Below are positions 51,001 to 54,000 of a stretch of DNA of 64,000 nucleotides, piece after piece (the first letter of the stretch is position 1; every line of letters begins with the position of its first letter). Made by a program: the position numbers. Source of the DNA: a plasmid. Location: sequence record CP128686.1; one strand, given 5' to 3'.

Positions 51001-54000
51001 CTGGCTGAGGAACTTCACTGCTGCGGAGGCTAATTTGGGCGTAAAAATTACAGGTATAGATAAATTGCAGAAACAATTGAAAGAAGTTGAGGAAGCGGCT
51101 GAAACCCTTAACGGTAGTTATCCGGTAAGTTTTGATGCAAACGATCCTGTCAGCATTGAAACTGCGATTCAGGAAGCGTACAGCATGTTGGAGGAGCGAG
51201 CCTCACGGTATGCCGCTAATCCGATGATTAGTCCCATGATCGAGGCCATGAAAGAGGATTTGCGTCAGCAAATTCTGGATAGTGCCGAACAGCAAAGACA
51301 GGAGAACGGGCAGGATGGCAATTGACATTTTTCAGTCACTCAAAAATTGTGTGTATGATTTGCAGCGTGCTGATGCACAGAACTATCAGCAACCACTGAA
51401 ACAACTGGCCCGGCTCCTGAACGACGGTAATCTACAGGCTGTTAACGAACGCCTGACATGTGATGTCGATCTTGACGCCTTTCTGGCGAAAAGTCATGAA
51501 ACCGAATCCAGTATGGCCGGCTCCGCCATCCTGCAGTGGCCTGAAGAACCGCGTGAAATTTTAGGCCTGAAGCTTTTGTTAATCAGGAAAATGTCCGTTA
51601 ACGATAATTTCGCATTCAATTTTTGCCACACGTTTTTCTATGACCGAAAAATTATTGAATCTGTCCGTAAGTTCACATCCTCGTTACTGGTAACTTTTGT
51701 TCGCGACTACCAGCTGTATGTTGAGAATGAATCCGATCCTGATCCGGTAGTAATACGTCAGGTCTCGCGCAAAATTTTTATTGTTCACGGCCATGATAAT
51801 GATGCCCTTCAGTCTGTTGCCCGCTTTATATCCCGGATAGGGCTGGAGGAAATCATTCTCTCTGAACGTCCTGATGGCTCAAGGACTGTAATCGAGAAAT
51901 TTGAAGCGGAGTCAGGAGATGTCAGCTTTGCCATAGTGCTGATGACACCCGACGACAGTGGAAATGCCCTGGCATCTGAAAACACACGACTGCGTGCACG
52001 CCAGAATGTCCTGTATGAACTGGGATATTTCGCGGGTAAGCTTGGGCGCGGGAAAGTGCTGGTACTAAGGAAGGGAGATATCGAAATACCTTCCGATCTC
52101 GCGGGCGTACTCTATACCGAGCTTGATGAGCATGGTGGATGGAAACGCAAGCTGCTGAGTGAGCTGACGTATGCCGGTGTTCCTTTTGACAAGGAAAAAG
52201 CGTTAAGCGCCTGATCCACTTATTGAGTAATAAAAAGGCCGCCAGGCGGCCTTTTTATCAGATCAGTCGTCATTTCCCAGTGCACTTTTGAGTTCTTCCT
52301 GCTCCGGCGTCAGCTCGTTGCCGGACAGCATAACCTTCAGCTTCTCTTCGACTGCTGACCAGTCATCAAAGAACGGACTGACCTGGTCACGCGCAATCCG
52401 GCGATATGCCCCTCTGTGAGAGCTGAAGACACTGGTCTGTAATCGTATCAACAGGTTAACGAGGCCTTCATCAGTGGCAGTTACTTCTCTGACCCATTGC
52501 TTCACGGCTTCATCTGAACTCATGTCTCTCCAGGCGTAGAGATACCCGAGAATTGACTGGCGCAGGAGAAGTTGTTGCTTAAGTTCTGGCTGACTCATGC
52601 GTTCAGCAAATCTGTCACGCAACCGTTCCGTAATATCGCGACTGAAAAGAGCGTCTGAAGGGGAAGGTACTGCATTTTGAGCAAGACCGTGTTCCCAGAT
52701 AAGATCCCGCATAAAATCGGCTATCCAGAACGGCGAAGCGCCAGTAACAATCAGCTTTTCCATCTGCGTGACTGTTCTGGTCTCATCAATATTCTGCATA
52801 TGCTTCAGCAGATGCCGTACAACCTGATTAATGCCAGTTTCACGCAGGGAAAACCATGTGTTACGGATCCGGAAGCGAGTGCTGACCTCATCCGTGTGAT
52901 CGAAGAAAAACTGAATCAACCCAGCACACTCTTCGAAATTACGTTCCTTAATCAGCCCCGGTGTCAGCCTGCTTAGTATATGTTCGAACCAGGTTCCGGA
53001 CAGACTACCCACACTGTTGATTTTTGAAAGGAGCTTTTCAGAGAGCTGCTGCTGGTTTTCCGGTACGCCTGCCTGCTTAAAAAGCTCATTAAAGAAATCA
53101 GTGGGCAGAACATTCTGGGGTGAGGAGAAGGCATAATAATATCGCCAGTGCGTCAGACTGCTGAGTCGTTTACCGGTCGTCTGGATATGACGAAAATCCT
53201 CACTGACGGGCTCAAAGAGATTCAGATGTGCATCATCATGTCCGCTGATACCGGGGAGCCAGTCTGCAAGCGTCAGAAACGAGTCTGCATTGGATGCCCT
53301 GAACGTCTTCATAGACCTTATAAGCTCCTCCCGGAAGTCTGCCTTTTCTCGGTCAGAAAGCATGCCCTGGCCGGTTTCAATCACGGACCGTTCTGTCAGG
53401 TAATGCTCTGTCCAGTCATACAGGGCCGGGTTTGTCACCCGGATAAGCTGGAGTAGGCACAAATCAGGGAAATACACAAAATCCCGCATCCCCGGATACA
53501 GAAAAATCAGGGAATTAATCGCCTGATGGATCTCCCGTGGCGTCGAAAGTGCGCCACCATACGTATCCGTCACCGCGGCGAGATCCCCTGACATTCCAGA
53601 GTCTGGCGGTTGATTATTAATTTGCTGTTACAGCGCCTCAGCCCGCTGGCGAAATTCATTGCGTAAATCAAAGGCTTCAGGCCGGGGTAATTTAAAACTG
53701 AGCTGAATGATTTTCTGCAGGTAACGGCTGCCATCTTCTATATTCAGCGCATACTCAACGGCATGAGTGATAATCTGCCTGTCATAACAGAGAATATGGG
53801 TAAAGCGGGGCAGATCGGCTACAGCCCTCACCAGTCTGAACACTTCAGCAATCTGGGAAGGTTCAAGTCGATCAAGGTCATCCATAACGACGATGAATTT
53901 CAGATCCAGAGTAACCAGTTGTTTCGCAATTTCAGCCCGCAGTTTTGTTGTCGTTTTTTGATCAACTGCGAGACGACTCTCGGTAAATACTTTTATCCCG

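Follow-up and report, generated by a model that had tools for sequence, protein, structure and literature searches.

The yuaX and yuaY genes and their surroundings

The window, i.e. the whole stretch of 64,000 nucleotides of record CP128686.1 that was analysed, belongs to a Klebsiella virulence plasmid of the pLVPK/pK2044 type. The pair of genes found at 51035-52214 is the orthologue of yuaX/yuaY of the F plasmid (NC_002483 41216-42395), in which the gene order, the 11-nt overlap between the two genes, the spacing of the Shine-Dalgarno (SD) sequence and the downstream convergent pifA-pifC genes are the same. The F plasmid differs from the window by the ATG start codon of its yuaX and by another upstream flank, and the premature stop found in pifA is that of the window. 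A preliminary description of this DNA had called the N-terminal domain of the larger protein unknown. The pair itself is not new to databases: they name the genes as yuaX/yuaY of the F plasmid, the small protein has its own Pfam family (PF27363 'YuaX') and the TIR part of the larger one corresponds to the PADLOC candidate PDC-S35.

The first gene, yuaX (51035..51325, + strand), codes for a protein of 96 aa and begins with TTG, versus ATG at the same place behind the same GGAGG in the F plasmid. This GGAGG, read from the sequence as the SD element (51025..51029, + strand), ends 5 nt 5' of the TTG and is kept at identical spacing in the F plasmid, in an E. coli plasmid and in an Erwinia persicina contig; a simple promoter scan found no sigma-70 consensus in the 5' region of yuaX. 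The protein is acidic (pI 4.3), soluble and 80% identical in amino acids to F-plasmid YuaX (YUAX_ECOLI). The dN/dS value against the F copy, 0.08, indicates a genuine coding gene; the small acidic TTG-initiated ORF announced in the preliminary description is indeed present. The second gene, yuaY (51315..52214, + strand), codes for 299 aa, with a helical N-terminal domain and a C-terminal TIR domain. Its longest ORF begins with GTG at 51282, which had been taken for the start; the true start is the ATG at 51315, because it is the RefSeq start and the only one yielding the 11-nt overlap with the 3' end of yuaX. That overlap had been correctly reported, together with the end of the gene at 52214, in spite of being inconsistent with a start at 51282.

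Downstream of yuaY, at 52230..52258, folding energies point to an intrinsic terminator hairpin, AAAAAGGCCGCCaGGCGGCCTTTTT, which is bidirectional (+ strand: -18.7 kcal/mol; - strand: -21.0 kcal/mol; z=-4.7 for both). It was overlooked by a simple scan because of its short loop, and is a predicted terminator common to yuaY (+) and to the convergent pifA (-). Upstream, the pair is flanked by vapBC (47767-48437) and by an IS3 fragment (47040-47753), in agreement with the vapBC and IS debris described before; the pifA and pifC genes (52263-55392), directly downstream of yuaY and convergent with it, had been missed. Pfam, PADLOC and NCBIfam profiles revealed no cyclase gene and no SIR2/SLOG gene among the eight ORFs scanned from 47040 to 55392, as had been stated.

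The pair is present, at 99% identity or more, on 583 plasmid records, 578 of the matching records being from Klebsiella. In E. coli, 264 of 5426 complete genomes (about 5%) carry the gene, nearly always on plasmids. More distant homologues reside on plasmids, at prophage accessory-gene sites and in genomic islands: a Pseudomonas prophage copy adjoins an S24 repressor gene, the copy of a Caudoviricetes contig lies between the tail genes and the integrase, and a Methylobacterium copy is part of an island with resolvase and integrase genes. They stand next to other defence genes and not in linkage with metabolic ones, with scattered matches to restriction-modification, CBASS, ThsA and RmrA models among the neighbours; in a survey of 150 neighbours from 27 loci, no defence gene was enriched in a countable, per-locus way. 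A literature search on YuaX, YuaY, PDC-S35 and pifA plus TIR retrieved no functional study.

The proximity of the pif genes raises the question of whether YuaXY, the KAP-NTPase PifA and the repressor PifC constitute a single four-gene T7-exclusion unit. The four genes are adjacent and convergent, around a common terminator, on F, on the pLVPK-type plasmids, on other E. coli plasmids and on the Erwinia persicina contig. Such a unit is nevertheless highly improbable: transcription is convergent and not that of a single operon, no KAP NTPase was seen near the distant loci inspected (Pseudomonas, Methylobacterium and the phage contig), and PifA was matched only once in the neighbour survey, on the Erwinia contig. 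Moreover, the window has a pifA with the premature stop Y287* and a truncated pifC while yuaXY is intact.

The TIR domain of YuaY

YuaY of the window is 87% identical in amino acids to its F-plasmid counterpart (YUAY_ECOLI), with a dN/dS of 0.07. Its residues 153-271 (51771..52127, + strand) matched the Pfam family PF10137 (CAP12-PCTIR_TIR) over profile positions 1-118 of 119, with a score of 126.7 bits for a cut-off of 24.7 (E=6e-37), which bears out the earlier proposal of a TIR-like C-terminal half. A sequence search of the PDB matched it with chains 9lmq and 7un8 of Cap12 and with PycTIR (8jsj). The glutamate of the NVLYE235LGYF segment aligns with that of NVVFEFGLF in the Cap12 TIR-STING proteins 7un8 and 9lmq and has an equivalent in 8jsj; this Glu235 (GAA codon, 52017..52019, + strand), the predicted catalytic residue, is invariant in 12 diverse homologues and in 33 natural YuaX-YuaY pairs. 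By sequence, then, the domain is assigned to the Cap12/Pycsar effector clade (PF10137) and not to the ThsB clade (PF08937): of the affinities first suggested, that with Cap12 and Pycsar stands and that with ThsB falls. The PF10137 TIRs form a clade of NADase effectors activated by oligomerisation (10.64898/2026.04.30.722052). Membership in this clade suggests an NAD-depleting effector rather than a signal producer, and YuaY is thus predicted to be an NAD+ hydrolase.

The database names given to the YuaY cluster, 'nucleotide-binding protein' and even 'ABC-type sugar transport system', would fit a housekeeping or regulatory role unrelated to defence, for instance in sensing the nucleotide status of plasmid or host. 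We regard this as very unlikely: the names are legacy COG4271 transfers, YuaY keeps every diagnostic residue of a catalytic TIR domain, and the gene is accessory and patchy, on mobile elements, as the E. coli count above illustrates.

In PADLOC the best match to YuaY was PDC-S35 (E=7e-66 to 4e-42), with which it has the Cap12/Pycsar-type TIR in common; further PADLOC TIR effector models also matched. PDC-S35 is one of 145 PADLOC candidates explicitly labelled untested. In YuaY the match begins at about residue 102-147 and ends at about 295 (of 299), and the initial 65-126 positions of the PDC-S35 profiles have no counterpart (the E=7e-66 match, which takes in the TIR half and the linker, spans profile positions 86-261 of 264), which indicates that the N-terminal domain differs. 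In addition, PDC-S35 consists by definition of one gene; the window locus has a second, obligatorily linked one, yuaX. Cap12 (TIR-STING) of CBASS and PycTIR of Pycsar share with YuaY the PF10137 clade and the catalytic Glu motif, and their logic, by which oligomerisation switches on a TIR NADase joined to a sensor domain, is like the one proposed here. Unlike them, YuaXY comes without a cyclase gene and without a STING, SAVED or cNMP-binding domain, its proposed sensor being an unclassified helical domain plus a separate small protein. Accordingly, scores of YuaY against the NCBIfam Cap12 equivalog were of 42.6 and 37.2 bits for cut-offs of 450, from the TIR part only, and the PADLOC PycTIR model matched only residues 189-271 (E=1e-9). 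With no cyclase, no ThsA and no matching sensor domain, the pair fits neither canonical Thoeris nor CBASS nor Pycsar, as first noted.

Coupling of YuaX to the N-terminal domain and exchange of the effector

YuaX was found directly upstream at 53 of the 55 genomic loci encoding a full-length YuaY relative, with an in-frame fusion at 4, versus none of the 24 loci where the YuaY-type TIR bears another N-terminus; YuaX therefore belongs with the N-domain and not with the TIR. The YuaX-YuaY junction, analysed for 50 bicistronic loci, varied between a gap of 2 nt and an overlap of 11 nt. Of the 9 viral contigs of IMG/VR that encode a full-length YuaY relative, 8 have YuaX upstream (the ninth begins at the contig end), and the coupling is kept from Enterobacteria to Alpha- and Betaproteobacteria. 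Mean pairwise identities were 0.48 for YuaX, 0.45 for the N-domain and 0.64 for the TIR, so that YuaX and the N-domain diverge at like rates and the TIR is more conserved; the divergence of YuaX had a partial correlation of 0.51 with that of the N-domain versus 0.13 with that of the TIR. In the comparison with the F plasmid, the N-domain had a dN of 0.13 and the TIR one of 0.015. YuaX and the N-domain are thus tied by obligate genomic coupling, co-evolution and occasional fusion, and the earlier view of a self-contained two-gene candidate defence module is strengthened by this conserved coupling, the in-frame fusions and the range of hosts.

The N-domain (residues 1 to ~137; 51315..51725, + strand) is all-helical and weakly HEPN-like. 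It matched no Pfam family, the AbiJ N-terminal domains included, in keeping with its first description as unrecognised, and fold comparison brought no convincing structural relative. Its conserved residues are H105 and then R130-D131-Y132. The HEPN catalytic motif, defined as Rx4-6H (PMC3710099), is absent: no Arg is followed 4-6 residues on by a conserved His. Assignment of YuaY to the HEPN family 'pEK499_p136' was rejected, as that family keeps Rx4-6H and sits in restriction-modification operons (PMC3710099).

As for YuaX, three helices were predicted (pLDDT about 80). The final structure model comprised YuaX and the YuaY N-domain, with alignment depth for the N-domain only, and a single-sequence concatenation of YuaX and YuaY gave a poor model (pLDDT 46). 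The protein identical to window YuaX is called 'YuaX family protein' in RefSeq; the PF27363 label is precomputed on a 99%-identical cluster representative (P0121) and on all the other YuaX homologues. Our profile scan gave no significant Pfam, NCBIfam or PADLOC match, PF27363 being a recent family missing from the older Pfam copy used; no DNA-binding domain was found and antitoxin families were not above noise. Neither enzymatic nor membrane features were detected, and a sequence-profile search of the PDB returned coiled-coil noise only. Two other ideas about the origin of YuaX were discarded. Resemblance to HK97-gp10-like tail-completion proteins came down to weak matches of 20 residues to phrog_5 for 7 of 45 members, which were not significant (best E 0.014), and BFVD gave no structural support for such a mimic; that YuaX is a duplicated piece of YuaY was rejected by hhalign (probability 0.3).

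To see what follows the N-domain, a census was made of 76 representative proteins in which 60 aa or more come after this domain. The YuaY-type TIR was present in 28, and 48 carried something else, including Ymh HEPN, DUF4145 HEPN, TIR_2 with a wHTH, hydrophobic tails and a match to a type II restriction-enzyme model. YuaX was fused N-terminally in 18 of the 76, 14 of these being non-TIR. In the DUF4145-HEPN version yuaX is a gene of its own, placed upstream and likewise overlapping by 11 nt, and the Ymh-HEPN version also has YuaX. The effector behind the N-domain is therefore interchangeable.

These observations bear on a Thoeris-like scheme in which the YuaY TIR would produce a signal of the cADPR type to which an effector from another locus responds, YuaX being an accessory or the effector itself. 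A TIR domain encoded in a two-gene operon often serves to produce a signal, and a 2025 Thoeris survey included PF10137 among the families that it screened. However, the best family for the YuaY TIR is PF10137 (the NADase-effector clade) and not PF08937, and its sole partner is a soluble, acidic, helical protein of 96 aa without effector features. Furthermore, the HEPN, hydrophobic and nuclease-like parts that take the place of the TIR in other members mark it as the effector position. Profile scans of the neighbouring ORFs showed no ThsA, Macro or SLATT gene adjacent in the window, and neither a constant cyclase nor a constant third gene emerged across the 27 related loci. There is very little chance, in our opinion, that YuaY works in this way.

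More weight must be given to plasmid addiction or another toxin-antitoxin role, with YuaX as the labile antitoxin of a YuaY NADase toxin and with post-segregational killing and the stabilisation of the plasmid or island, in place of phage defence, as the main function. A small acidic gene placed upstream of, and overlapping, a larger enzyme gene fits an addiction module equally well, and the pair resides on large low-copy plasmids, near vapBC in the window and near ccdAB in F. NAD-targeting toxins with small protein antitoxins are also an established kind, as exemplified by MbcTA and RES-Xre. Several features argue the other way. YuaX has neither a DNA-binding domain nor similarity to an antitoxin family; it is fused at 4 of 55 loci and in 18 of 76 proteins, a state that a degradable antitoxin would not tolerate unless it were allosteric; the pair is also found at prophage accessory-gene sites and in chromosomal islands; and exchange of the effector that follows a common N-domain is a typical trait of defence proteins. 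Taken as the explanation of the pair, addiction appears unlikely, though less so than the other alternatives; toxin-antitoxin and abortive-infection functions can coexist, and this explanation overlaps the one that we favour.

A proposed abortive-infection system

The reading that we favour, and consider the probable one, is that yuaX-yuaY is a translationally coupled two-gene abortive-infection system directed against phages. YuaX and the YuaY N-domain, for which a sensory or regulatory role is proposed from the architecture of the protein, would together form the sensing and regulating unit. In the resting state a YuaX:N-domain complex, which supposes a physical binding of YuaX to YuaY that we infer, would keep the TIR domains apart or inactive; an infection cue would alter this complex, the TIR domains would then oligomerise, and the resulting NAD+ collapse would stop the infected cell. 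YuaX could act in it as inhibitor or as sensor, and the expected phenotype would be phage defence. One finding counts against a defence function: for parts meant to sense phage proteins, which evolve rapidly, YuaX and the N-domain show rather high conservation.

Bacteria are known to abort phage infection by means of TIR NADase effectors. Those known to us are either switched by a nucleotide signal (CBASS, Pycsar) or single proteins; the switch of YuaXY would be a helical domain always partnered by, and sometimes fused to, a small protein, and reused before unrelated toxic domains. Knowledge of the cue to which it responds would add a new principle of sensing. A parallel is provided by fused or split toxin-antitoxin sensors of the CapRel type, in which the small regulatory part is, like YuaX, either a separate upstream gene or fused. 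In CapRel(SJ46) the regulatory part has two tasks, auto-inhibition of the enzyme and recognition of a phage protein. Fold and chemistry are unrelated, tRNA pyrophosphorylation for CapRel versus predicted NAD+ hydrolysis for YuaXY, and it is in YuaXY that the small part is N-terminal.

Being widespread, the module could affect phage therapy against hypervirulent Klebsiella. It is also carried by the F plasmid, which has been studied more than any other plasmid.

A broader proposal, to be taken as tentative, is that YuaX and the N-domain represent a previously undescribed two-component infection sensor attached to interchangeable suicide effectors, i.e. a new modular abortive-infection family. 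The effectors would then be Cap12-type TIRs, TIR_2 domains, HEPN RNases, membrane-active tails and nuclease-like domains, and the founding member of the family would have gone unremarked next to pif on the classical F plasmid. In that case yuaXY, and not pifA, could account for part of the phage exclusion and fitness effects seen with F-like plasmids and with the virulence plasmids of hypervirulent Klebsiella. The architectural principle, one N-terminal helical domain followed by exchangeable C-terminal toxic domains, HEPN and TIR among them, is that of the AbiJ-type modular Abi proteins, whose N-terminal domains occur together with various effectors, HEPN, TIR and REase among others (Anantharaman et al. 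2013, PMC3710099); the description of the AbiJ type given there has no counterpart of the obligatory small partner YuaX. YuaX was not upstream of remote N-domain-like proteins (27-32% identity), which limits the YuaX rule to the core family; one of these remote genes lies behind a reverse-transcriptase gene and another behind a gene with an NmeDI_C domain.

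The yuaX-yuaY pair and its plasmids

The preliminary description had proposed a two-gene, TIR-like defence module, and both of its open reading frames exist in the ORF list: a small one at 51035-51325 (+ strand), encoding 96 aa, and a larger one ending at 52214. The 11-nt overlap proposed between them stands, but not the start given for the second gene, since 51282 is the GTG of the longest possible form; the annotated start, ATG 51315 (+ strand, read as caggATGgcaatTGA), agrees with that overlap and gives a protein of 299 aa. The same pair is present at 41216-42395 of the F plasmid, where the genes are yuaX and yuaY (by exact-sequence look-up UniProt YUAX_ECOLI and YUAY_ECOLI, both labelled 'uncharacterized'); RefSeq names the products 'YuaX family protein' and 'TIR domain-containing protein'. 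The TTG start of yuaX is 5 nt behind a GGAGG; in F, ATG takes its place. Measured against F, yuaX has a dN/dS of 0.08 and yuaY one of 0.07, values that mark both as genuine genes kept by purifying selection.

The 1.36-kb region is 100% identical in the Klebsiella pneumoniae virulence plasmids pLVPK (NC_005249) and pK2044 (NC_006625), and 583 plasmid records carry it at ≥99% identity. Another 311 records, the majority of them F-like plasmids of E. coli, form a second set with 80-90% identity. The region was found in 264 of 5426 complete E. coli genomes, and 260 of its 274 places there are plasmid-borne. On the related plasmid pVir_249kb, a frameshifted copy of the mucoid phenotype regulator gene rmpA2 (L001, 4088-4724) is located about 4.4 kb upstream of yuaX, which confirms the virulence-plasmid setting.

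Around the pair, yuaX showed no sigma-70 consensus promoter. Upstream of it lies an inverted repeat, GATCCG-N14-CGGATC (50906-50939, + strand); F, an E. coli plasmid and an Erwinia contig all keep its arms while the loop varies, and folding is modest (-9.5 kcal/mol, z=-2.2). From its sequence, this repeat may represent an operator or what is left of a terminator. Downstream, a strong hairpin lying between A- and T-runs (52230-52258; -18.7 and -21.0 kcal/mol) separates yuaY from the convergent pifA (- strand) and is predicted to terminate both genes.

YuaX accompanies the N-terminal domain of YuaY

The TIR-like character claimed for the C-terminal half of YuaY was borne out by a match to PF10137, the CAP12/Pycsar effector TIR (residues 153-271, 126.7 bits, E=6e-37). 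The preceding helical part, the N-domain (residues 1 to about 137), matched no Pfam family and lacks the HEPN Rx4-6H motif; with 99 homologues it was predicted to be a seven-helix bundle (pLDDT >90). YuaX (pI 4.3) has three predicted helices even without an alignment (pLDDT about 80) and resembles no part of YuaY. Foldseek searches of the PDB and of viral models returned nothing significant. Homologues of YuaX are labelled PF27363 'YuaX', a recent Pfam family whose name has no functional meaning. Its N-terminal helix (residues 1-20, 51035-51094; GVKITGIDKLQKQLKEVEEA) gave weak matches to PHROG 5, 'tail completion or Neck1 protein'; these were seen in 7 of 45 family members, with a best E of 0.014, i.e. 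below significance and without structural support.

A scan with one genome per species, in which six-frame translations were searched with YuaX and YuaY, yielded 80 loci, one of them decayed. In 55, a full-length relative (37-87% identity, with both N-domain and TIR) was present; in 53 of these it was immediately preceded, on the same strand, by a YuaX homologue, and in the other two it was not. The YuaX-bearing loci belong to Gamma-, Beta- and Alphaproteobacteria and to a few metagenome-assembled genomes of other phyla. In four (Tropicimonas, Falsochrobactrum, Octadecabacter and Amorphus), an in-frame fusion joins YuaX to the N-terminus, and the resulting proteins are 400-415 aa long. At the 50 bicistronic junctions analysed, the genes overlap by 1 nt (21 loci), 4 nt (15), 8 nt (4) or 11 nt (5), abut (0 nt, one locus) or are separated by a 2-nt gap (4). 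Nine viral contigs of IMG/VR encode a full-length relative, with YuaX upstream in eight; the ninth begins at the contig end. YuaX was missing from all 24 loci having a closely related TIR behind a different N-terminus. Taken together, these distributions indicate that YuaX goes with the N-domain and not with the TIR domain.

Divergence was compared in 33 natural pairs, for which mean pairwise identity was 0.48 for YuaX, 0.45 for the N-domain and 0.64 for the TIR. Among these pairs, which are not phylogenetically independent, YuaX divergence followed that of the N-domain (Spearman 0.53; partial r 0.51 with the TIR removed) and much more weakly that of the TIR (0.25; partial 0.13). Between the window and F, dN was 0.13 for YuaX, 0.135 for the N-domain and 0.015 for the TIR. 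These comparisons agree with the fusion and co-occurrence data.

One of the two YuaY relatives without YuaX, in Pseudoduganella sp. (L055, 4518-6903), immediately follows a ThsB-like TIR ORF and a membrane protein; judging from the translations, the latter two may form a Thoeris-like TIR plus transmembrane pair.

Exchangeable effectors and a proposed switch

A full-library phmmer search with YuaY residues 1-145 recovered no more than 191 cluster representatives, of which 100 reached E ≤1e-10. At least 60 residues follow the N-domain in 76 proteins: in 28 they form this TIR and in 48 something else. The alternatives include a family of helical and hydrophobic tails of about 125 residues (15 members), short tails for which one or two membrane helices are predicted, TIR_2 together with a winged helix (matched by the PADLOC spbK model), Ymh HEPN and DUF4145 HEPN domains, a region matching a type II restriction-enzyme model, and a domain resembling PD-Lambda-3_B. 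YuaX is fused in front in 18 of the 76, and 14 of these 18 are non-TIR. Upstream of the DUF4145-HEPN version, YuaX has a gene of its own, here too overlapping by 11 nt, and a tail-type version is preceded, at the contig edge, by the last 15 residues of a YuaX gene. Since different toxic domains are swapped behind one N-domain, the TIR occupies an effector position. In this YuaY is like abortive-infection proteins generally, where a constant N-terminal unit is combined with interchangeable toxic domains, as for the AbiJ N-terminal domains (PMC3710099).

Remote N-domain-like proteins (27-32% identity) occur without YuaX, one behind a reverse-transcriptase gene and one behind an NmeDI_C-domain gene. 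In soil metagenome contigs L176 (145-2235) and L177 (842-2932), the remote protein P0469 (28% identity to the N-domain over the matched stretch, C-terminal membrane helix) is encoded 13 nt downstream of a 434-aa RVT_1 reverse-transcriptase gene. By analogy, this arrangement resembles a DRT-type or retron-type defence pair using the same kind of N-domain.

In sequence matches to solved Cap12 TIR-STING chains (9lmq, 7un8) and PycTIR (8jsj), Glu235 of the YuaY motif NVLYELGYF aligns with the glutamate of NVVFEFGLF, the catalytic residue of SfSTING; Glu235 is invariant in all aligned homologues. The PF10137 TIRs are a clade of NADase effectors activated by oligomerisation (10.64898/2026.04.30.722052). 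YuaY has an intact TIR of this effector clade, and its N-domain has a small, obligate, co-evolving and sometimes fused partner and is reused with other effectors. We infer a switch in which the YuaX:N-domain complex would hold YuaY inactive until an infection cue alters it; the TIR domains would then assemble and deplete NAD+, and the infected cell would stop. YuaX might act mainly as an antitoxin-like inhibitor or as a co-sensor; that stable YuaX fusions exist speaks for a permanent, allosterically working subunit, by analogy with CapRel, a fused toxin-antitoxin that works allosterically, and against a degradable antitoxin.

As had been noted from the sequence, the pair does not fit canonical CBASS, Pycsar or Thoeris, having no cyclase, nucleotide-sensing domain or signal-responsive effector. 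The score of YuaY with the CBASS Cap12 equivalog is far under the cut-off. PADLOC models of PDC-S35, a single-gene phage-defence candidate, match it strongly, but over the TIR half only; the PDC systems are 145 candidates from a guilt-by-embedding screen. A 2025 Thoeris survey deliberately left out standalone or effector TIRs, and we found no paper on YuaX, YuaY or PDC-S35. The effector and the general logic are already known, and the system brings the defence field no conceptual surprise; what appears to be undescribed is the switch in two parts, YuaX and N-domain, along with its use in front of other effectors. As a candidate on both F and a hypervirulent-Klebsiella virulence plasmid, it is directly testable with existing strains.

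Neighbouring genes and mobile contexts

The IS debris reported beside the pair corresponds to a chimeric ORF (47040-47753, + strand) joining the N-terminus of an IS3-family transposase (HTH_Tnp_1) to a piece of an Mrr-type restriction endonuclease; in RefSeq the two are separate pseudogene fragments. The vapBC genes, likewise reported, are present upstream at 47767-48437. Also upstream are a gene for a 377-aa DUF3800 protein (49045-50178, + strand) and two small hypothetical ORFs. Between vapBC and yuaXY, the DUF3800 gene is followed after 16 nt by an ORF of 97 aa that resembles VC1465/Xer-activation factor weakly and below threshold; this uncharacterised small pair (49045-50487, + strand) had no PADLOC match.

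Downstream, pifA (52263-54488, - strand) encodes the KAP NTPase of the F-plasmid T7-exclusion system. Codon 287 (53628-53630) is TAA, against TAT in an otherwise near-identical pLVPK-type plasmid, and splits the ORF into halves of 286 and 443 aa that match PADLOC PifA at E=1e-120 and 8e-159; the interruption reflects either a pseudogene or a sequencing error in the record. Directly upstream of pifA, ORF 54490-55392 (- strand) had no Pfam, PADLOC or NCBIfam match and is, in the RefSeq annotation of a related plasmid, an N-terminally truncated transcriptional repressor PifC. As read from the sequence, the Pif unit looks decayed on this plasmid and yuaXY intact. The block yuaX-yuaY, pifA, pifC is common to F, other E. 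coli plasmids, pLVPK and an Erwinia persicina contig.

No constant third partner emerged from the 150 neighbouring ORFs surveyed at 27 loci. PADLOC found scattered type IIG restriction-modification, CBASS cyclase with capH/capP, ThsA, RmrA, PifA and PDC-M48B, and Pfam mainly HTH regulators, integrases, transposases and GNAT acetyltransferases. These contexts, from a survey and not from an enrichment test with statistical control, suit an autonomous accessory module carried by mobile elements. The pair lies inside a prophage in Pseudomonas viridiflava, adjoining an S24/HTH repressor gene, between tail genes and integrase in a Caudoviricetes contig, and in an island with resolvase and integrase genes in Methylobacterium.
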